Positions 2,528-44,348 of a stretch of 48,790 bases of DNA are shown here, piece by piece. The DNA is taken from positions 1 through 48,790 of the forward strand of contig JALAGF010001016.1 of assembly GCA_030167865.1 (NCBI GenBank), read 5' to 3'. The stretch comes from Craspedostauros australis (Eukaryota). Made by a program: the position numbers and the translations under genes. The notes under the pieces are model-generated. The model was given only the letters and a program-made list of their open reading frames with translations, was not told the origin of the DNA and made no database searches. Position 1 is the first letter of the stretch; each line of letters starts with the position of its first letter.

Positions 2528-5500
2528 ATGGCTCATCACAATAGTCAGCATCGTCAACAACGTCAACAACAACGCCAACAGAGAAAGCACCGCCAGCACA
2601 GTTCTCACAATAGCAACTTTCGCAGAAGCTCTCACAATTCAAGACAAGCATCATTCGCTTTCATCTGCCTGTTGGGTGCAAGTTTCCTGGTCAACACATC
2701 AGCAGCTTCATCCACTATATCAGCTTCAACCACCTTGTCAGCTTTCCCATCATTGACGATATCGTCATTCGTCCTCTCGTCGCACTCGCAACGACACTTC
2801 CAAGCGTTCCGTCCCACAAACTCAAACGGCGCCACCACATCTGCCACCGCATCTGCCACCACATTCTCTCACCTCACCACCAGCCTCGCCACCAGCAAGC
2901 CAGCAGCCACCATGACCACCGCTGACCAAACCACCCCGCTGATTCCCGGCGACGGCAAGTTCCATTTCGCCATCGATCGTGGTGGCACCTTCACCGATGT
3001 CTTCTGTCGCTTGCCGGACGGAAACGAGGTGGTCTCCAAGCTCCTTTCGGAGGACCCGGCGCACTACCCCGACGCACCCACCGAGGGCATCCGTCGCATG
3101 CTCGATCAGCATGACACCGTCAAGGATGATGTCACCGGTGAACGCCTGCGCACATACCCGCGCAAGCAGCCACTCAACACGTCCCAATTGGGTTCCATCC
3201 GCATGGGCACCACCGTTGCCACCAACGCCCTTCTCGAACGACAAGGCGCGCGCATGGCCTTGATCATCACGAAGGGCTTCGCCGATCTGCTCGAGATTGG
3301 CAACCAATCGCGCCCCGACATCTTCGATCTCACATGTGCCAAACCATCGCTGCTCTACGAGAGCGTCGTCGAAGTGGACGAGCGTGTCACGTTGTCGCAA
3401 TTTTATGAAAAGGATGCAGACCAAGAGCACGAATATCCAACCGCCATCGGCATCACGAAGGAGCAGGTCTACATCGTCCAGAAGCCAAATCTCGAACAGA
3501 TTCGGACCGAATTGGACAAATTGCGCGATGCTGGCATCACCTCCCTCGCCATCGCCTTCTGCCACGCCTACACCTTCGGCGATCACGAGCGCATGGTGGC
3601 CCAGATCGCCGAGGAGATGGGGTGTTTCGAACAGATCTCTCTCAGTTCGCAGGTCATGCCGATGGTGCAGCTCGTGCCGCGCGGACACACCTGCTGCGCC
3701 GCAGCTTACCTCACGCCCAAGATCACCACGTACCTCGCATCCTTCATCCAAGGATTCGATCACAATTTGCAGACCAACGTGCCGCTCACCTTCATGAAGT
3801 CGGATGGCGGTCTTGCGCCATTCAACGACTTTGGCGGTCATCAGGCCATTCTCAGCGGCCCAGCCGGCGGTGTCGTGGGCTACGCCAAGACGACCTACAG
3901 CAAGAAAGACAAGGTCCCCGTCATTGGATTTGATATGGGCGGAACTTCCACGGATTGTTCCAGATATGACGGCCAGTGGGATCATGTTTTTGAGACCGTC
4001 ACTGCCGGTGTCGCCATCCAAGCGTGAGTCCACCGTTTTTTTTGGGTCATCGCGTGTTGTATTGGATCGTGCACTCCATTGCGTTGCATCGCATGCTGTA
4101 CGAGTGCGCGTGGCCCGTTGACCAATGGACCACGCACAATGATAACCATCGTTATTTTTGTGCTCAAACACCCACCATGTCACTTGTGAACTCAGTGTGT
4201 CTCACCTCGCCCTTGTCCTTCCACCACTACCAACCAACAACCAACAACCAATCAATGCAAACAACGCCAACAACTCCAACAATCGTACGCAGCCCACAAC
4301 TCGATATCGTGACCGTCGCGGCAGGTGGAGGCAGCCGCCTCTTCCTCGATCGTGGGATGTTTATCGTGGGTCCCGAAAGTGCCGGTGCTCATCCAGGCCC
4401 CGTGTGCTACCGCAAGAACGGCCACCTCGCCGTCACCGACGCCAACGCGGTCCTGGGTCGCGTCCTGCCGCAGCATTTCCCCCACATCTTCGGACACAAC
4501 GAAGACGAACCGCTCGATGCGGAAGGTGCGCGCGCTGCATTCGAAGAGCTCTCCTCTAGAGCGGAGGGACAGGGACGAAGTCCCGAGGAGCTGGCGTACG
4601 GTTTCCTGCAGGTCGCCAACGAGGCCATGTGCCGTCCAATTCGCAACCTCACGCAGATGAAGGGCTTCGACATCACCACCCACAAGCTCGCGTGCTTCGG
4701 CGGTGCCGGTCCTCAGCACGCCTGCGCGATGGCCAAAGCTCTGGGAATGAAACAGGTCTTCGTCCACAGGTACGGTGGCATCCTGTCCGCCTACGGCCTC
4801 AGCCTCGCCGACGCCGTCCATGAAGAGCAGACTCCAGCGGCCGACATCTACGATGGAAAATTGCCAGCCACCGGTCTGGAAAGTCTCAACGCACTCGCCA
4901 CAACAGCGAAACAGCAGCTCGTCAAGCAGGGCTACGAGGAATCGGACATTGTCATCGAACGATTCGTGAACATGCGATACCAGGGCACCGACAACGCCAT
5001 CATGATCCCGGAAAGCGAAGAAATTACCATGCATGAAGCCTTCGAGGGACAGTACCAGCGAGAGTTTGGTTTCACGTTGAAGGGACGCGATCTGTTGGTC
5101 GATGATTACAGAGTCCGAGCGGTCGTGCTTGGTCAGGAACTGGCCGACCCGCCAACACCACCATCTCTGGGCACGCCAGAGAGCACGTTGGGAACCACGC
5201 GTGCGTATTTTGAGAACGGATGGGAGGAAGTGCCGGTGTACAAGGTCGACGACCTCAAGCCAGGGCACGAAATCCTGGGACCCTGCATCATCGTCCAGCC
5301 AATCAGTACCGTCGTGTTGGAGGTCGGTTGCCATGCCGTCATCACGGCCAACGGTGACATCGCCATCACCGTGGCATCGTCATCATCAGCGGAGGACGAT
5401 GAATCCAGCACCGCGATCACGCAGATCAAGGAGGATCCGGTGAAGCTATCCATCTTTTCGCACCGCTTCATGGGCATCGCCGAGCAGATGGGACGCACGC

Positions 5501-7020
5501 TGCAACGCACGGCCGTCTCCGTCAACATGAAGGAGCGATTGGACTTTTCCTGCGCCCTGTTCACCAAGGACGGTGGACTCGTGGCCAATGCACCGCACAT
5601 CCCAGTGCACTTGGGCGCCATGCAAGCCGCGGTGCGATTCCAGGTCGAGTACTGGAACTCGGAAGGCAGGGAAGGCATCCAGGAGGGAGACGTCTTGGTC
5701 TCCAACCACCCTCAGCTCGCAGGTGGTTCTCACTTGCCAGACATCACAGTCATCACTCCAGTGTTCTACAAGGGCGAGATCATCTTCTTCGTGGCTAGCC
5801 GTGGTCATCACGCCGACATCGGAGGGATCGCGCCAGGTTCCATGCCACCGCACTCGAAGTGCCTCGAGGATGAGGGTGCCATGATCGTGGCATTCAAGCT
5901 CGTGCGAAACGGCGACTTCCAGGAGGCGGGGATCACGGAGATCCTCAATTCGCCTTCCAAACTTCCAGGCAACTTCGGCACACGCAACCTCCGCGACAAC
6001 CTCAGCGATCTGCGTGCCCAGGTCGCCGCCAACAACTCCGGCATTCGCTTGCTGCAAGAACTGGTGCACGAATACAGCTTGCATGTTGTCGAGGCCTACA
6101 TGGGCTTCATCCAGAACAATGCCGAACACTCCGTGCGTGCCATGCTCAAGGACTTCGTCGCCAAGCACGGCGCCACGACCACGAAGGCCATTGACTACAT
6201 GGACGACGGATCGCCGATCGCCCTGACCATCACCATCGATCCAGATTCCGGCAACGCCGTGTTCGACTTTACAGGCACAGGACCACAGGTGCTTGGCAAC
6301 CACAACGCCCCTCCTGCAGTAACATACAGCGCCGTGATCTACTCCCTGCGTTCCCTCGTCGGCAAGAGCATCCCGCTGAATCAGGGTTGCCTGGCCCCCA
6401 TCGAGTTCATCATTCCCAAGAACACGCTCCTGAACCCCTCGTCCGACGCCGGCGTCGTGGGCGGCAACGTCCTGACCTCGCAGCGCATCGTCGACGTCGT
6501 GCTGCGCGCCTTCGAGGCCTGCGCGGCCAGCCAGGGCTGCATGAACAACCTGACCTTCGGCGACAAGAAGTTCGGATACTACGAGACCATCGCCGGTGGC
6601 GCAGGCGCGGGTCCCACCTGGCATGGGCGCTCCGGCGTCCACACGCACTGCACCAACACCCGCATCACGGATCCCGAGATCCTGGAGCGCCGGTACCCCG
6701 TGCTGCTGCACGAGTTCTCCCTGCGCAAGGGGAGCGGCGGCACCGGCAAGTTCAGCGGCGGGGACGGCGTCGTGCGCGAGTTGGAGCCGTTGCGGCCACT
6801 CGTGATGAGCATCCTGAGCGAACGCCGGACGCTGCATCCGTACGGACTGGAAGGTGGCGGGGAAGGTGCCTGCGGACGCAACCTGCTGATCAAGAAGGAC
6901 GGGGTGACCGTGAACATGGGCGGCCGATGCAGTGGCAGCCTGGGCGTTGGAGAACGTCTGCGCATCGAAACGCCAGGTGGCGGTGGCTACGGCGCGGCTG
7001 AAGAGGAGAAGCAGGTGTAA
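2528..7020 (+). CDS. OXP1: 5-oxoprolinase (ATP-hydrolysing; fused hydantoinase A/B-type), 2 exons
   Basis: Motifs [81 protein letters not shown] and TPGGGGYG. Intron 4024-4292 (GTGAGT..CAG) restores 'VAIQAPQLDI'. Start is 2528 or 2912. Confidence 0.95.
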
Positions 7021-12240: not shown

Positions 12241-15237
12241 ATGGCATCATCAACGAAGTCATCAAAGTCAGCGTCAATGCCATCATCGTCGTCGTCAATG
12301 CATGCATCGTTGCATTCTTTGTCTTCAGCTTCGATGTCCAGGGGAACGCAACCACAGGCAATGAAGCAGCTCTCGAGCTCACGGGGACGGCCCTCTGTGA
12401 GGTGCTACTTCTTCGCCATCATCCTGGTATTCTGCCTCGCCAACCTCCTCATCTCGACCAAGTTCGCAAGCGTTACGGATCGAGAATTCACACCGATGGA
12501 ACGCTTCGTCGACCACGCGATCGTCCGTGCCAACGCGCACCGCACAGTCCACAAGAAGCCAAGGTTGGCGACGCATCCGGCTGACGATATTCAACGTGTG
12601 CCAAAGCCGTCCGTGCCCTTGCCGAATCCTTCGCAAAGGCTGCAGACGATTCGGAAATCGAAGACGTATACGGAAGCACGCACAAACGCGAAAACCGAGC
12701 CCACGTCCAACACGCAAACGAAAGAGATTCCGACGACAACCGTACCGACGACAACCAAAGCAACCACACAAACAACAACGGCAACAGCAGAAGAAGTAAC
12801 AACACAAGCAACAACGACGACGACAACAACAACATCTGTGTCTCCTTCCTCACAATCAGTACTTTCAATTCCGGCGCAACACAGTGTCGCCGGTTTGAAT
12901 TGCGATCGCTACGGCGGTCCATCGCCAGAGATCGCCAAGGAGATGGTGTACTGGGAGGACATTCCATCGGATAGCCTCTTCATCAGCCCCTTTCGATCCA
13001 AGACGGAAACACAGTACATGACCTTTGACTTGGATTGGGGTGGCTGGAACAACATCCGCATGAGCATGGAGAGCATGTTGGTGCGTATCATTGGATTGCG
13101 TTGAGTTCACTTGAGTTCCGACAACTCCCATGCATCACAAAGGTCATGTGTCGCGAGTAGGATCCGCCGGGCTTCACATTCAAGAGTGCTTTATTGTTTT
13201 TCGCACTGTATGAGGCTTTGCTGCACTCAAACCAGTCTGCATGACAGTGGCTGTGTGCGAACGCAGAAGCGGCCCATCATCCGTCACTGCATTCCTCACA
13301 TTCGTGACTTCAATCATACTTGCGACACCAACATACGTACTGTATACTTGCATTCGAATGCGTTGGTCCGACAGACCCTGGCATTTGCGATGGGACGCAC
13401 CTTGGTGCTGCCGCCGGGCCAAGGTTTTCCTCACCTAGATGATAAGGCGAACAACCAGCGCAAACATTTCTCATTCGATCATTTCTTCCACTTGGACTCC
13501 ATCAGTCAGGAACATGCAGGCATCAAAGTTATCTCAATGAAGCAGTTCCTCAAGACGGTCGCCATGCAAGGAAAGATGCGAAATCGCGTCACTGGTGAGA
13601 TCACTTTCCCACCTGGCAACATCACCAATTGGGATGGCAAATCGTTCAAGGAGATTGAGCACCTGCGCGCATGGTTGCAGGCATCCTCTGATCAGAACAG
13701 CAAATGGAACCCGCGTCTCTGCATGGCAGCATTCCCGAAATCTCCCGATCCGGAAGATGCGCAAAGCCTCCTTGACGATTACAACACAGTGCAAAAGAAC
13801 GGCGGATTCGTTTCGTTCGAGGCATACACTGGCAAACCATTCCCGGTCGATGCACCACCCATCGATCGCATGCAAGAGAATTGGGCGGACCGGGAACAGC
13901 TTTGCATCTACGACAGTGACCTGCAGAAAGCCACTGTGTTTCATTTCCCGCTTCAATTGATTCATCTTAAAGTCGACGAGACTGGGCTGCCACGGCGGTT
14001 GATGGAGGCCGACGAAAGCGACGCAGATGGAGTGTCCGCGGATGATGGAAATGAGGACAGTCATGAGGACAGTCATGAGGACAGTCATGATGACGGACGA
14101 AAGGAGGCAGCCGATGCGAACAGCGCGGATCAGGATGCGGACAGCACAGACGGTGAAAGCAAAGCAGAGAGAGGCAGCAACGAAGATGCGGATGAAAGCA
14201 AAGGGAAGTCAGCGGAAAAGGAAGACGAGGATGAACAACCATCCTCAGCGGAAGAAGCAACCCAAACCGCGGGTGAGAAAAACGACGTCGATGAGGAGGA
14301 CGAAGAAGAAGAGGAAGAGGGACATGACACGCGGTTGCTGGTTCATTTCTATGCCTTCCTCTTCTTCCAGGACTGGCGAGAAGATTTGCTGATGGTACGT
14401 CTTATTACCTTTGAGATCCAGGTGCACAATTCAACTTCTTGGACCCATGATGTTTGAACATGATGTCTGGACACTGATTTTGTATCACTCACAAGCTTGC
14501 GCCCTTCCATTCCTGATTGGTAACATCCCGGGCCCTCTCGAATCTCGATCGTTCATCTCATGTTCCGCATGATACACAACTACTTGCTCGCACAGAAACG
14601 CTTTGTTCGCGATCATGTGCGATACGTGGACGAACTTCAATGTGCGGCAGCTCGGGTAGTTCATGCGGTGCGTGAGAGATCGAAGTCAAACCCTCAAGCG
14701 ATGGATGCGGAGGGACATTTCGACACGTTCCACATCCGGCGTGGAGACTTTGAAGACCATTACGAAGGCACCCAGCAAACCGCGGAGGAAATCATCAACG
14801 TGACCAGGAGCGACATGGTGCCTGGATCTACCGTGTACATTGCAACGGACGAGAGTGACAAATCCTTCTTTGATCCATTCAAGGAAATCTATGACGTCGT
14901 CTTCTTGGATGATTTCATGCATGAACTGGACGGCATGAACACCAATTTCTACGGCATGATCGACCAGCTGATCGCAGCACGAGGTCGCACATTCTTCGGA
15001 TGCTGGTTCAGCACATTCTCGGGCTACATCAACAGGCTGCGGGGATACCACGCTGACAACCTTCAGCTGCCGGGCTACGAGCAGGGTATCGTCAATTCCT
15101 ATTACTACGCGGTCGAAGGTCGTTACGATCGCATGAAGCAATACTTCGCCGTCAAGCAACCTTACTATGCGCGGGAATACCCGACAGGTTGGCGGTTGAT
15201 TGACAAGGGCATTGGACAATTTCAGCCAGTGGCATAA
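12241..15237 (+). CDS. O-fucosyltransferase-like protein, tandem paralog 2 (3 exons), with Thr-rich stem and acidic insertion
   Basis: Exons 12241-13080, 13375-14394, 14596-15237. Same motifs and same two intron positions as paralog 1. TM CYFFAIILVFCLANLLI. Confidence 0.85.
14051..14090 (+). repeat. 12-bp tandem repeat (ATGAGGACAGTC)x3 encoding EDSH repeats
   Basis: Read directly from the sequence; lies inside the acidic insertion of paralog 2. Confidence 0.9.
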
Positions 15238-27895: not shown

Positions 27896-30418
27896 ATGTC
27901 AAGAGCCACTCTCCGCATGGACGGCGCCGCCAAGACACCACGAGGAATGCGCTCCTTGCCCCCAAGGGCACACCCGCAACCCAATGAACTGGCGCGCCTC
28001 AAGGAGGAAGCTGCCAGCATCGAGCGATGGTGGTCAACCGAGCGCTGGAGCCATACCAAGCGAACGTACACAGGTGTGTTTGCGTGTTGTGCGCGGCATG
28101 CTGATGTAGATTCCTTGTATGGCACAATACTGTAGTTTGCTTTACTTGATTGCCAACACCCTGCACACTGCACGGGACTGCTTACTGGCCTGGCCTGTGC
28201 GCTCCGATGACTCTCACATCAACATGCATGTGTTCCTCTTCGGATCGTACCAAACTATTCGTTCCAAAACAAAATACCCAACAAAACACAACAAACGCAC
28301 AGCCATGGACGTCGCATGCTTGCGACCATCGAAGGAGGCACGCGGCGGACAGGCCATGTCTCCCAAGTGCCTCTTTTCGTCGTCGCAGTCTGACCGGCTC
28401 TACAATCTCCTGCGACAGCTCCAAAGAGTCGGCGGATACTCCCACACCTTCGGCGCATTGGATCCAGTCCAAGTCATCCAGATGGCGCCGCACTTATCCA
28501 CCATTTACATCAGTGGATGGCAATGTTCCTCGACGGCATCGACCACCAACGAACCAGGGCCGGACTTTGCGGATTATCCAGCCAACACGGTCCCAAACAA
28601 GGTGGATCAATTGGTCCGCGCCCAGCTCTTCCATGATCGACGTCAGAACGAGGAGCGCTGTAGCAAGTTGCTTCGCAATGAGAGCCCCGGACCCAAGGTC
28701 GAGTATTTGAGACCAATTATTGCCGACGGCGACACTGGCCATGGTGGATTGAGCGCCGTCATGAAACTCACGAAGATGTTCGTAGAGGCCGGCGCCGCGG
28801 GTATGCATCTCGAAGATCAGAAGCCGGGCACCAAAAAGTGCGGCCATATGGTAAGTGAGGGCGCTGGTGTACTCGGAGGTGTATGCCAAGACGTGACACA
28901 CACACGTGTACGGCTGCCTATGGATGCGGGGGCATGCATTGTCGTCGTTCATGTCGTCACATAGCTCTACGATTAAAACGCAGGCTTGCAGTTGCTCTCT
29001 TCAGCATGTATACATTGCAGGTGAATGTGAATGTGTATGTGCATTTGCATTTCAATTCGACTCGCTTCCTCCATTCCCAAGCTCACAATGCGCATATGCC
29101 GCGGACTCTCAATGCATCATCACACCCACCACCACTACCATCATCATCGCAGGGAGGCAAAGTGCTCGTCAGCACACAAGAACACATCGATCGATTGGTC
29201 GCGGCACGTCTCGCGGCCGATGTCATGGGTGCTTCGTTGGTCATCGTGGCAAGGACGGATGCGGAAGCAGCGACGCTGTTGGACTCCAACATGGACAAGC
29301 GTGACCATCCGTTCATCGTGGGTGTCACCGTACCTGGAATGAAGAGCCTCCAGCAGACGCTGCTGGACGCCACCGACAAGGCCGCTGCCGGTTTGGAGTG
29401 GAAACAACGAGCACGCCTCATGACGTTCGGCGAGGCAGTGGAAGCCAAGATCCATGACATGTCCATCCATCCGCAGGAAAAGCGCCGCATGATGAATGCA
29501 TGGAGAGCGGCCAATCCAGATTCGTTGTCCAACACCCAAGCTCGTCGCGTTGCGGATTCCATTTTTGGCAAGGCCAATGCGGTAAGTTGTGGCATGGTAT
29601 GATGCTGGATGTGTAGCTGAATCATATGCTTCCGTGAGGGCGCAAACGGCAGACCGAGGAGGCGTTCATCTTCAGGCCTCCAAGAAGCACGAACACTCCA
29701 AGATCTCTAATCTGCTCTGCTGGAGGCTGAAATCTCACCATTCTTCACCCCCGCCATTGCTATCGTGATGACTTGCATCATCTGCACTGCTATCAATGCT
29801 TCGACTGCATTGTGCTTCTCTTCATCAAATTCAATTCAATCTCCTCCAACGACACAGGTCTACTTCGATTGGGAGCTATGCCGAGTTCGGGAGGGGTACT
29901 ACCAAACCAAGCCCGGCATTGACTACTGCATCAAACGAGCCCAGGCCTACGCACCATACTGCGACATTATCTGGATGGAGACGAAGGTGCCGGGTATTGC
30001 GGACGCACAGAAGTTTGCACACGGCGTGCATTCCAAGTGGCCACACCAAATGCTGGCCTACAACCTCTCGCCGAGCTTCAATTGGGATGCGTCGGGCATG
30101 TCCGACGGACAGCTCGCCACCTTCAACGATGCGCTGGGCAAGCTCGGGTACACCTGGCAGTTCATCACCCTTGCTGGGTTCCATTCGAATGGTTTGGTCG
30201 TCACCAAATTGGCACGTGAATTCGGCGATCGCGGGATGCTGGCATACGTCGAGACGATCCAACGTCAGGAGAGGAAGCACAAGGTGGAGCTGCTCACGCA
30301 TCAGAAGTGGTCCGGCGCGGAGCTTGTCGATCGGATGGTGAATGTCGCCTCGGGTGGCACATCTTCCACAGCCGCCATGGGAAGTGGTGTCACTGAAGCG
30401 CAGTTCGCAAACAACTGA
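27896..30418 (+). CDS. ICL: Isocitrate lyase (long eukaryotic type), 4 exons
   Basis: Exons 27896-28073, 28303-28850, 29153-29581, 29858-30418. Motifs [81 protein letters not shown] and HQKWSGA. Confidence 0.95.
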
Positions 30419-39880: not shown

Positions 39881-41410
39881 GCCCTACTGTTCCAATGTTC
39901 ATGTTGTGTCATGCCATGTCATGTTCAGGAAGGATCATGCCAACAGCAACCGCCACAGTCTCAGCACAAGAACAGATACCCACATTCGTTTTTGCGTTTG
40001 CATTCGTATCTGTATTCGTATTTGTATTCGCACTTGCATCTCGGATGTCACAATCGACTGTGGCGCCCCCACTTTCTTTCGCCGCTACGGTAGTAGCAGT
40101 AGTAGCGACACGGGACAGTTTATCCACACTTTCCGCACCACCAAAAATGTGGCCGAGAGGAGAAGAAGTCCGTGGGGGACTTGGCGAAGCGCCTCCAGGG
40201 ATGGGTTCCGCATATTTCTTGCAATCGTTCGCAGTGAAGGCAGGAGGCGCGTGCACGACAGAACCCCCATCGAACAATATTTCTCTGCCAAGACGCATGA
40301 GGGCGCCTGCTGTGGAGGTGCTCCCTGCAAACCTGATGGTGACGGTCTCGGCTGTGTTGATGCTGCTGCTGACGCTGCCGATGATGGCAACGATGATGAG
40401 GCGTCGGTGGATAAAAGCAGCGCTGCAAGGCTGTCGATGGAACCGATGCGCGAGAGGTCCACGTCTTCCCAATCCTTTTGATCCATCGTGCCTGGTCTTG
40501 TGTGAATCTTGGCACTGCTATGGGATGATTCGTCGAGAAGGGATCCGCCCCCACCCCTAAGATACGAACAAGCCACGAGCAGGAAAGACAAACGCGAGAA
40601 TCGGGGTGGCGGTGTTCGTGTGGTGCTCATACCCGACACGACATGGTTCGCACACACTGATGACGGTCTGCAATACTCATACCAACGTTCTCAGTTGCTC
40701 ACAAGGGTGACGTTTGCTTTCGATTCGACACCGAAAGGGGAAGAGAACGAAGAGTGGAGCGCGCCCATGGACGTACGACTAGTCGCACCACACGAACCAG
40801 CCTGTTCCGGTTATTCTTCCCCGAGTGAGAGTTGTGGTGTGTGTCATGCGTGAGCGTGGAAATGCAAGGGAAGGCGTCTCCGCCTCCACTTTCTTGGCGG
40901 GAGCTTGGTGTTCCTCGGCGAGCCGCGTGTTGGCTCATGGAGGCGCAACGATGTCAACTGGCGGTTATGAAGCGTTATTTCAAATAGTTCTCGTTTGTGG
41001 GGGCGCTGCGTCCTGACTCATTCGTGATTTGACGGTTCATGCCACGTCATGGACCAGGCGAATGACAGACGTAATAAGAGACAAATAAATGCAAGTTCAA
41101 GCAAAACAACAAACAACAAACAACAGAACAACCAAAAAATGAACGTGTCATTTCGAAGAACGCAAGCGGGGAAGTTTGGTTTGGTTTGGTTTGCTGTGTG
41201 CAATCTCCGTCCACGTTGTCGTGTGTTACGATTTGAAAGGCTTCGATACTTCCATTCGTTCTGTTCCAACATCGGTAACAGGAACGTCGCCAACAGGAGC
41301 AGCAACAACAGGAGCACCATTTGCTCTTCTCTCCAACATCGAAACGGGAAGTTTTGGGGGCACAGATCCACATTCATAAAAAACAATCACAGACAAAATC
41401 GAAGTGCAAG

Positions 41411-43090
41411 ATGAGAGTATCGAGTTTAGCCGTGCTGCAACTGGCGGTTGCCGCGGAGCTGACGGCAGCATTCAGCAGCGTTCAGGCATTGACGACGCAG
41501 AGCAGACAAGCATCGGCACCCACGAAGAACTTCTCCGGTCTGCGTGCTTCCGTCGTTCCCGATCAGGAGCAGGTGGAGACGGATGCGTCGGAAGATGGCG
41601 ATGACGGCTGGCGACGCGCTGATCTCTTCGGAACGACGTTGATCGATCAGACGTTGGAGGAGCTGGAGACGGACGAGGAATACCAGGAGACGTCGAAGCG
41701 CATTGAGCAGATCGGATTGGAGGGCGTCTCCAGAGAGGAGCGCACCCAGCGCCGACGTGCGCTCACCAACCTCGGCATCCCATCGTTCTCCAAGTTCCTC
41801 GTGGATCAGCAGAAGGAGGTGGATGCCAAGGCAGACGCCGATGCCGCATCCACGGAAGCTCCAGAAGGGAGCAGCAACGCGAGCCGGAGGAAAATCTACC
41901 CACTGGAACGCAAGCCCACCACCATCCTGCAGTTGAACATCGGCCTGTACTGCAACATGGCCTGCAGCCACTGTCACGTGGAGTCGTCGCCGCTGCGCAA
42001 GGCGGAGATGATGACGGCCGAAACAGCCGCGCGCTGCATCCAGCTCTTGAAGTCCACGCCCTCGGTCACCACCCTCGACATCACGGGCGGCGCTCCCGAA
42101 TTGAATTCCAACTTCCGGTACCTGGTGCAAACGGCGCGTGCCGTGCGGCCGGACATCGACATCATCGATCGCTGCAACCTCACGGTGTTGCAGGAACCAG
42201 GACAGGAGGATCTCATCGATTTCCTCAAAGACAACAACGTGCACATCGTGGCGTCCCTGCCATGCTACTCCGAAGACAACGTCGACAAGCAGCGCGGGCG
42301 CGGTGTCTTTGATCGTTCCATCGCGGCCCTTTTGGCGCTCAACGATGCTGGCTACGGCAAGCAGAATGAAAACACGAAGCTCGACCTCGTGTACAACCCT
42401 GGCGGCGCCTTCCTTCCGCCGGAACAGGCTGGGTTGGAAGTGGCCTACAAGAAGGAGCTCAAGGCCAACTTCGACATCACCTTCGATTCGCTCTTCACCA
42501 TCACCAATATGCCCATCAAGCGATTCGCCGACTACTTGCACCGCAATGGAGAATTGACCCAGTACATGGACCTGTTGGTGCAGAATTTCAACCTCGAGAC
42601 CGTGGACAGCCTCATGTGCTTAGACACCGTCAGCGTCGGTTGGGACGGCAAGGTGCGTACGAATACAGCGGAGTGGCATGTCCTGACATTTTCATTTCCA
42701 TTGCTGTTCTTTTGCGCTGCTGCCGCTGAGTGTATCTTTGGTGTGCTGCGCTCATCAACCTTCGCGAGCTGCAGCGTGGAACGGACTGCAGTCTCACATC
42801 CCAAAGCAATCGACCGGCCAATCAACCTACCAACCGATCTGATCACTTCTCTTCTTCTCCCAAACTCCATCGCCAATGCCAACGCAAATACAAAATGCCA
42901 GATCTTCGATTGCGACTTCAACCAACAACTGGGATACGGCGTCGGAGTGGACAGCATCCATCGCGGTGGCATGACGGTTTACGACGTCGAGTCGCTTGAT
43001 GAGTTGCTGGCCAAACGGATCCGCACCGACAACCATTGCTTCGGTTGCACGGCCGGCATGGGTTCCAGCTGACAGGGTGCCACGACGTAA
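41411..43090 (+). CDS. arsS: Radical SAM/Cys-rich protein of the ArsS (arsenosugar biosynthesis) family; probable selenoprotein with plastid-type leader (2 exons, about 476 aa)
   Basis: CxxxCxxC motif LQLNIGLYCNMACSHCHVESSP, plus LDITGGAPELN, ASLPCY, LVYNPGGAFLPP, ITNMPIKRF and DCDFNQ. Ends HCFGCTAGMGSS-TGA-QGATT-TAA. Intron 42653-42901 (GTGCGT..CAG). Leader MRVSSLAVLQLAVAAELTAAF. Confidence 0.88.
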
Positions 43091-43332
43091 TGCAATTCCA
43101 TCGAGGAGTACGTACTAGTACCTCTGCGTACGGTAGAGCACAGTACTCCGGAATTGCATGCGCCGTGGCGATCCCAACGATGAGGCAGATCTTGGCAGAC
43201 CCCATTGCTGTCATGCTGACGTTTGCCTCATCGATTCATCCAATTATCGAAGGTTGATGCGGAGTGCAATCTGCTTGGATTCAGAAATGGGAGGGCATCC
43301 GTCTCGCCGTCCCCCAAAACCTTGCACACGTA

Positions 43333-43392
43333 GGATAGCAATGAATGACTCCTTGTGCGTCTCGATGCACAAGGATGAACAATTGCCCGTCC
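43333..43392 (+). promoter_or_regulatory. Candidate non-canonical SECIS element in the arsS 3'UTR
   Basis: Helix I GGAT/GCAAT pairs with ATTGC/GTCC. Core A-TGAC (43345-49) faces TGAA (43376-79). Helix II TCCTTGTGCGT(C) pairs with (G)ATGCACAAGGA over 11-12 bp. The apical loop has no AA. Confidence 0.6.
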
Positions 43393-43724
43393 TTCTCATG
43401 GCGTCGCATGTGCTCCGATGGAGTTCAATTGATTGACGAAGTCAGCACGATGTGGTCCATGAGGTCCAAAGCACGATCTGGCACTAACGCACAACTTTCA
43501 AACGGTTTGGACAACATGACGAAACACTATAATCGACCTAAGACATGATTGTTCATACGAAGAGACCGACACCTACACTTCAAAGTCGAGCAGCGTGCTG
43601 TGTCTATTGCTCAGGTCGAATGTCTATTCACTATCGACAGGAGATAGTGTCACTCTGATTGCCGCGCTGTTGTTGCTTCAAGAGTGTTGCATGTTGGCAG
43701 CACCAGCAACAACCATCTCGTCGC

Positions 43725-44348
43725 CTACAACTCGCCCCGGAACGCATCCTGCGATGCTTCCTCCGCATGAGCATCCTCCACCGGATGCTTCAGTCTGTGC
43801 CTTGCGCTCATCACCAACTGCGTTACCACGTGATCCGCGCCCCACTTATCCACCGCCATATCGATGACGGGCACGCCGTCGTTGGTCACCGATTCCGCGT
43901 CCACCCCCGCACGCAGCAGCAGGTCTACCACTTTCTCATGACCCCGGCTCACGGCGAAATGCAGCGGATTCCAACCCTTCTTGTCGCGCCGATCCTTGTA
44001 TTCCGGTTTCCATTCCAGATACTGCTTGATGAGCTCGATGTTGCCATTGGCTGCCGCAACACGGACATCCTTGGGCGTGAAGCGGGTTTTCGCGGGCGGT
44101 TGCTTGGACATCTGCTCGGCCTTGGCGCCGGCCTTGTCGTAGATATAATCGATGTCCGGATTCTGCGGTTGGTGAAAGGATTCGGCATGGACGTCCATTG
44201 CGATGTGCTCATTCTCCATCTGCTGCTTCATCATGGCGTTGATGGATGCGAATGCTGCATCCCTCGCATCGGCCTCGTCTTTGTATGGTGGTGCCGCATC
44301 CGTCTCATCCTCATCATCATTGTGTCCATCGGCGTATCTTTCCTCTGC

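Follow-up and report, generated by a model that had tools for sequence, protein, structure and literature searches.

Does a TGA codon close to the end of a diatom ArsS gene terminate the protein, or is it read as selenocysteine (Sec)? The question is raised by a stretch of Craspedostauros australis DNA, positions 1 to 48,790 of the forward strand of contig JALAGF010001016.1 (GenBank assembly GCA_030167865.1), which is referred to here as the window and was analysed over its whole length of 48,790 nucleotides (nt). On the plus strand, the frame opened by the ATG at 41411 runs to the codons CAT TGC TTC GGT TGC ACG GCC GGC ATG GGT TCC AGC (...HCFGCTAGMGSS; residues H-C-F-G-C-T-A-G-M-G-S-S) before it meets a TGA at 43070-43072. 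The window letters continue with CAG GGT GCC ACG ACG and then a TAA at 43088-43090. In the list of open reading frames (ORFs), the uncorrected ORF has 553 amino acids and ends at 43072. A first-pass annotation made from the letters alone had described this run of codons exactly, and had proposed that the TGA encodes Sec. On the basis of sequence comparison, we conclude that the UGA at 43070-43072 very probably does encode Sec. This is supported by its alignment with a conserved Cys, by conservation of the short tail that follows, and by an element resembling a Sec insertion sequence (SECIS), although without the canonical apical AA, in the transcribed 3' untranslated region (3'UTR).

The assignment of the gene to the ArsS-type radical S-adenosylmethionine (SAM) enzymes, also made in the first pass, was borne out. 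The NCBIfam model TIGR04167 matches at 395.9 bits (E 1.1e-118, with the intron described below still included in the translation) against a curated cut-off of 300. Pfam matches were obtained for DUF3641 (156.1 bits) and Radical_SAM (49.5 bits), and the Cys-rich DUF3641 motif ending GSS[C/U]xG is present. Across 70 aligned sequences from diatoms and bacteria, the cysteines of the radical-SAM CX3CX2C motif (C181, C185 and C188) are invariant, as are four more, C403, C501, C543 and C546 (numbering of the unspliced translation). TIGR04167 is currently named 'arsenosugar biosynthesis radical SAM (seleno)protein ArsS', and is listed in a 2026 review as the prokaryotic selenoprotein 'Radical SAM domain protein, GxxU' (PMC13188914; this and the other articles are cited from the portions available), in agreement with the earlier statement that some family members carry Sec. 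ArsS attaches the 5'-deoxyadenosyl radical of SAM to dimethylarsenite (DMAs(III)), yielding DDMAA, short for 5'-deoxy-5'-dimethylarsinoyl-adenosine (PMC13598754; also a 2026 bioRxiv preprint). We take the window gene to be a diatom nuclear ArsS. Its deoxyadenosylation chemistry is presumed from the cyanobacterial enzymes, and its product would catalyse the committed step towards arsenosugars.

The codon at the TGA position was compared across related loci and proteins. A total of 593 relatives were found on metagenome contigs and the best 80 were taken. The C-terminal motif pattern was found in 71 of these, the nine misses being mostly cut contigs or variant motifs. Across the 71 motif-bearing loci, the position is occupied by TGC in 53 cases and TGT in 14 (67 Cys in total), by TGA in three (L001, L002 and L007) and by ACT in one. 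The TGA thus falls on the conserved Cys of GSSCxGA, the point that the alignment check proposed in the first pass was meant to test. At the protein level, a word-indexed search returned thousands of relatives, the best 120 of which were analysed (59-88% identical). The named members of this set are diatoms, from the genera Cylindrotheca, Nitzschia, Pseudo-nitzschia, Seminavis, Epithemia, Fistulifera, Mayamaea, Attheya and Eucampia. GxGSS is the exact end of 98 of these 120 proteins; 20 go on with GSSCQG..., and the remaining two are truncated otherwise. Several of the proteins ending at GxGSS are transcript ORFs flagged 'complete'. Every one of the 20 Cys-form proteins has a C-Q-G-[A/T/S]-x-x tail, with which the QGATT of the window gene agrees.

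The residues following the TGA, whose conservation had likewise been proposed as a check, are shared by all four TGA forms. L001, L002 and L007 read Q-G-T-T-A and then a stop, giving a common tail of Q-G-[A/T]-T-[T/A] followed by a stop when the window gene is included. The tail codons vary synonymously among the TGA forms (CAG/CAA, GGT/GGG and ACG/ACC/ACA), and the sequences are just 59-60% identical to the window protein over the best tblastn segment. The second stop is in register with that of the Cys-form genes, the Cys forms displayed having their stop five codons after the Cys. Five open codons past a stop are unremarkable taken alone; it is the homology of the tail and the shared stop position that place them beyond chance.

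A different explanation holds that the UGA is a genuine stop, in which case most diatoms would have an ArsS without the last Cys and the tail, and the downstream codons would be the remnant of a Cys-to-stop mutation. TGA does end four of the 11 Pfam-supported ORFs in the window, including those of TFIIS and isocitrate lyase, where it falls at the profile ends. TGA is therefore otherwise an ordinary stop, and is not reassigned in this genome. Termination is also favoured by the non-canonical nature of the hairpin described below (no apical AA, no match by Rfam), and by a predicted local distance difference test (pLDDT) score below 50 for residues 556-559 of the C-terminal tail (unspliced numbering), so that the last residues could be dispensable. 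However, a remnant would decay, while in four of four TGA forms, despite their divergence, the tail retains its amino acid pattern through nucleotide changes that are synonymous, and the second stop remains in register. Homologues that reach this position have Cys there (67 loci and 20 proteins), and a kink-turn hairpin follows all four TGA forms and none of five eukaryote-like Cys forms. Taken together, the position, the tail, the spread among homologues and the otherwise ordinary use of TGA as a stop agree with a conserved Cys/Sec pair and not with a decaying remnant behind a true stop, and we consider termination at this UGA improbable.

Cys-type and truncated ArsS proteins are intermingled among diatoms, even within one genus: Cylindrotheca fusiformis has the Cys type and C. 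closterium the truncated one. The pattern suggests that switching between Sec and Cys happened repeatedly among diatom ArsS. A separate observation concerns locus L005, positions 68-1180 of a 1.6-kb metagenome contig, which encodes a Cys-form ArsS whose frame, closed by a TGA, contains four TAG and two TAA codons at conserved positions. One of these in-frame stop codons occupies the place of Q in C-Q-G. The presence of TAG and TAA at conserved positions indicates that the L005 host reads TAA/TAG as an amino acid (like NCBI table 6).

The structure of the gene differs in one respect from the first-pass description. The frame was correctly seen to reach the TGA, but it had been taken as continuous, and an intron at 42653-42901 was overlooked. 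The intron is 249 nt long, has GT and AG ends, is in frame and is free of stops, and so lies concealed within the naive ORF; it is the only intron of the gene. Three lines of evidence identify it. First, the stretch corresponds to an 83-column gap in 27 of 29 aligned homologues. The remaining two (P0059 and P0083) have shorter inserts of their own at the intron position, which look like retained introns. Second, a contig from sequencing run X1 fuses 42650 to 42900 and omits 249 nt, with GT and AG ends when the cut is moved by +2. The run is labelled 'RNA?' by guess, as no run recorded as RNA is listed. The spliced contig is identical to the window and covers 42295-43561; the absence of X1 cover over 41300-42283 is uninformative. 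Third, residues 414-492 of the unspliced translation have pLDDT below 50 in the AlphaFold model. By including the intron, the naive ORF call adds 83 spurious residues to the ArsS protein. The spliced protein has 476 residues (414 + 62), and the TGA is its codon 471 (554 in the unspliced translation). The gene is thus laid out as follows.

41411..42652, plus strand: exon 1, 414 codons, its end set by the X1 joint and the alignment gap; it contains the presequence at the N-terminus, a helical extension specific to eukaryotes, the radical-SAM core (cluster motif CNMACSHC) and the start of DUF3641.
42653..42901, plus strand: intron, from the X1 joint, the homologue gap and low pLDDT.
42902..43069, plus strand: exon 2 up to the putatively recoded codon, with the invariant DCDFNQ and HCxGCTxGxGSS motifs.
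43070..43072, plus strand: in-frame TGA, very probably read as Sec, from the Cys/TGA alignment in homologues.
43073..43087, plus strand: five tail codons, Q-G-A-T-T, the tail being kept in TGA loci and Cys forms.
43088..43090, plus strand: TAA, the probable true stop, in a register shared with Cys-form genes.
43091..43561, plus strand: 3'UTR, minimum extent, record 1 of X1 matching the window without any difference over 42900-43561.
43332..43393, plus strand: SECIS-like kink-turn hairpin, from folding, pattern search and an inverted repeat.

The X1 contig also bears on the ideas that the TGA arose as an error of sequencing or assembly and that this copy is a pseudogene. Nothing specific speaks for either, beyond the fact that single-base errors can make TGA from TGC or TGT. 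Over 42900-43561 the spliced contig has no letter differing from the window (X1 and the assembly may share an organism or culture as their source). A TGA is present in three independent metagenome loci and is implied by the 98 homologous proteins that end at GxGSS. Elsewhere the frame is unbroken and no invariant residue is missing. We accordingly give an error or a pseudogene hardly any credence. A separate X1 contig, from the convergent neighbouring gene, begins at 43603.

Recoding of a UGA as Sec in eukaryotes depends on a SECIS, described as having a UGAN/KGAW core and, within a bulge or the apical loop, an AA or CC left unpaired (PMC3753652, PMC2375036). A candidate was found in the hairpin at 43332-43393, which lies inside the transcribed 3'UTR, as the spliced X1 contig extends to 43561. 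It consists of an outer stem (43332-36/43389-93), a helix I (43338-42/43382-86, GCAAU/AUUGC), a core in which AUGA at 43345-48 faces GA at 43377-78 (AUGA opposite UGA-A), then a C.U mismatch, and an 11-base-pair (bp) helix II (43350-60/43365-75) closed by a CUCG loop. The minimum free energy is -25.8 kcal/mol (z -4.35), with none of 200 shuffles as stable, and the arms were also detected as inverted repeat I1. A strict pattern was defined as AUGA, one unpaired position, at least eight contiguous pairs, one unpaired position and GA. This has two sites in 97,580 nt (the window, both strands), one of which, 255 nt beyond the TAA, is on the sense strand at 43345-43378; a strict site with helix I arises in two of 2000 shuffles of the UTR. 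The second site (minus strand, 5003-4942) was set aside as it is antisense within the oxoprolinase coding region.

The three metagenome TGA loci have elements of the same architecture as the window hairpin, sharing the core GAAUGA[C/A], with unrelated helix sequences. A relaxed pattern matches 82-292 nt after the stop in four of four TGA-form genes and in none of the five eukaryote-like Cys forms, the background being 46 matches in 750,042 nt (0.037 per 600 nt). Two other segments of the UTR were rejected as SECIS candidates. That at 43178-43233 is a perfectly paired inverted repeat (10 bp, 36-nt spacer) without a kink-turn, and that at 43545-43642 matches only weakly, over 9 bp, has a loop of 74 nt and reaches past the end of the RNA contig.

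Several observations weigh against this hairpin as a SECIS, and with it against recoding. The relaxed pattern was tuned on the same four elements, and its statistics are therefore optimistic, the contrast with the Cys forms being indicative as opposed to a clean test; the L001 element fails the strict pattern. The window hairpin has no unpaired AA or CC 10-13 nt past the core, where positions 10-13 after AUGA are C-G-U-C within a continuous helix, and its apical loop is only 4 nt. A clear AAA at the apical position is seen in one of the four orthologous elements (L007). SECISearch-type tools require the consensus NTGA_AA(or CC)_GA, in which the AA or CC is unpaired and lies at a distance of 10-13 nt from the core, and an apical loop of normal length (PMC2375036, PMC3753652), and the window hairpin would fail the primary pattern and filters as these are described in the same articles. 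The four elements, aligned with MAFFT, gave no pairs in RNAalifold, the 3' halves having failed to align. Rfam SECIS models gave no match at E<=10, either in 42900-44200 or in an 86-nt stretch around the hairpin. ARAGORN found no transfer RNA (tRNA) gene in the window, to which that search was confined.

The silence of Rfam can be calibrated with the L007 element (4604-4680), which looks canonical in having AUGA, an 8-bp helix II, an unpaired AAA and a mini-stem. This element was also unmatched by the Rfam SECIS models (E<=10, 106-nt search), and the negative result for the window is therefore uninformative. When four loci were searched whole, the SECIS models again gave no matches; across all these searches, the only matches were to microRNA or small RNA models at chance level. 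The Rfam SECIS models thus appear insensitive to these stramenopile elements. We describe the window hairpin as SECIS-like, since its membership of the canonical class fails on the apical AA/CC, and our working hypothesis is that it acts as a functional SECIS despite the short CUCG loop.

The UGA could also be read through without Sec, by near-cognate insertion of Cys or Trp or by programmed read-through aided by a hairpin directly after the TAA. An inverted repeat is indeed present at 43091-43158, with perfect 9-bp arms and a 50-nt spacer, and folds into a stable stem-loop (z -3.08); a comparable stem-loop lies approximately 10 nt after the UGA of L001 (z -3.03). The lack of an apical AA in the downstream hairpin points the same way. 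Structure near the UGA is nevertheless not conserved, L002 being without such a stem-loop (z +0.14). The Cys/Sec pair occurs in a family already known to use Sec at this position, and the TGA forms are tracked by the specific SECIS signature, a kink-turn core of AUGA/GA together with helices I and II. Read-through without Sec is, in our assessment, very improbable. The 43091-43158 repeat may be a helper of read-through or of Sec redefinition, or may be unrelated.

Returning to Sec insertion, the two-exon nuclear gene is spliced and transcribed, and we propose that the UGA at 43070-72 is recoded by the eukaryotic SECIS pathway. The kink-turn hairpin in the 3'UTR would direct the recoding, and the product would have 476 residues ending in ...GSS-U-QGATT. 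We infer with high confidence that SBP2 and eEFSec-type machinery would insert Sec at codon 471. The organism presumably has the Sec machinery, by analogy with other diatoms. These are reported to have 20-44 selenoprotein genes (PMC7539508), and the Sec tRNA of Thalassiosira pseudonana has been sequenced (PMC2375036); in the portion of the latter article available, 16 selenoproteins are listed and ArsS is not among them.

An AlphaFold model of the unspliced translation (mean pLDDT 74.1, predicted template modelling score 0.75) was used to consider the role of the conserved cysteines. The nearest solved folds are SkfB (6efn, E 2.2e-8), BlsE, EpeE, MoaA and SuiB, which are of the SPASM/twitch type with auxiliary clusters. 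A sequence search of the PDB did not find a solved ArsS structure, the sole weak radical-SAM match being 8wm2_A (E 3.1e-4). By analogy with the SPASM/twitch folds, C403, C501, C543 and C546 probably hold an auxiliary Fe-S cluster, a view we hold with moderate confidence. The fifth Cys/Sec lies on a C-terminal tail that is predicted with low confidence and is probably flexible. More speculatively, the thiol or selenol of this residue could be free to bind As(III) or to pass on electrons. If translation stopped at the UGA when selenium is scarce, the outcome would, by analogy with thioredoxin reductase, be a nearly full-length, impaired enzyme.

The N-terminal region of the protein (41411-41900, residues 1-165) begins with a hydrophobic, signal-peptide-like segment followed by an Ala-Phe pair that is common to many diatom homologues in the alignment consensus. 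This arrangement resembles the diatom plastid-import signal. It is followed by a helical extension of approximately 100 residues (pLDDT 70-93), kept in diatom or eukaryote-like sequences, absent from bacterial ones and without a Pfam match.

The other genes in the window are ordinary eukaryotic or diatom genes, encoding an oxoprolinase, a light-harvesting protein, TFIIS, isocitrate lyase, a PreP peptidase, a DUF6824 protein and an ankyrin protein. In cyanobacterial operons arsM adjoins arsS, an arrangement that is not defining for eukaryotes. No arsM neighbour was found, there being no methyltransferase match among the 25 long window ORFs scanned. The genes for oxoprolinase (2528-7020), an O-fucosyltransferase (13210-15237) and isocitrate lyase (28119-30418) each appear as two adjacent ORFs on successive parts of one Pfam profile, and probably hold introns as ArsS does.

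The first-pass expectation that gene callers would truncate the protein agrees with the 98 of the 120 closest homologues that end at GxGSS. Public protein sets appear to truncate diatom ArsS systematically, and the window protein would be six residues short; annotation and structural or functional work based on such sequences would therefore miss the Cys/Sec residue. If Sec is inserted, there is a selenium-dependent step in the arsenic detoxification and arsenosugar pathway of major marine primary producers. If the hairpin works, SECIS finders that demand an apical AA can miss diatom selenoproteins. A broader proposition combines these points: that most diatoms' ArsS is a selenoenzyme whose C-terminal selenol binds the arsenic substrate directly by an As-Se bond, that marine arsenosugar and arsenolipid output therefore depends on selenium, and that the gene is recoded through a subclass of SECIS whose helix II is closed and whose apical AA is absent. 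Taken whole we consider this rather unlikely, albeit worth stating; were the SECIS subclass real, diatom selenoproteomes would be under-counted by standard finders.

Against the background of known systems, diatom ArsS would be a new eukaryotic, diatom-wide member of a known Sec/Cys family, and not a new principle. The principle is unchanged because Sec at this position is already present in the NCBI family name and in the 2026 review, and the earlier caution that any novelty may lie at the level of lineage was right, given that bacteria are already catalogued with Sec here. Algal selenoproteome catalogues include an 'FeS oxidoreductase (FeSoxR)' (PMC7539508), and an 'Fe-S oxidoreductase' is among the Aureococcus selenoproteins (PMC5917014). 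FeSoxR, which the main texts give by name without sequence, Pfam identifier or motif, may be the same family as diatom ArsS; UniRef gives the name 'Fe-S oxidoreductase' to one diatom homologue (P0069). The identity of the FeSoxR entries aside, our search found no literature linking ArsS or a radical SAM protein with Sec in diatoms or other algae.

The prokaryotic Sec-form ArsS shares with the window gene the family (TIGR04167), the Sec position (G-S-S-U fits GxxU) and the interchange of Cys and Sec. In contrast to bacteria, which use a SelB-bound hairpin within or just after the ORF, the window gene has a kink-turn element in its 3'UTR, together with an intron and an N-terminal extension of approximately 160 residues. 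The characterised cyanobacterial Cys-form ArsS, which adenosylates DMAs(III) to DDMAA (PMC13598754), has the same CX3CX2C motif, DUF3641 and C-terminal motif of the HCxGCTAGxGSSCxGA type. It differs in having Cys where the window gene would have Sec, and in being without a presequence or N-terminal extension. Compared with the eukaryotic SECIS, the window element has AUGA facing UGA-A (which fits UGAN/KGAW), a helix I, an internal loop and an 11-bp helix II, and lies in the 3'UTR, 275 nt after the UGA, whereas the unpaired AA/CC is absent, the apical loop has 4 nt and Rfam gives no match. Thioredoxin reductase-type selenoproteins carry Sec on a flexible C-terminal tail. Their fold and chemistry are unrelated to those of ArsS and the comparison is one of analogy only, yet in both cases Sec would lie a few residues from the C-terminus, such that a stop at the UGA gives a nearly full-length, presumably impaired protein.

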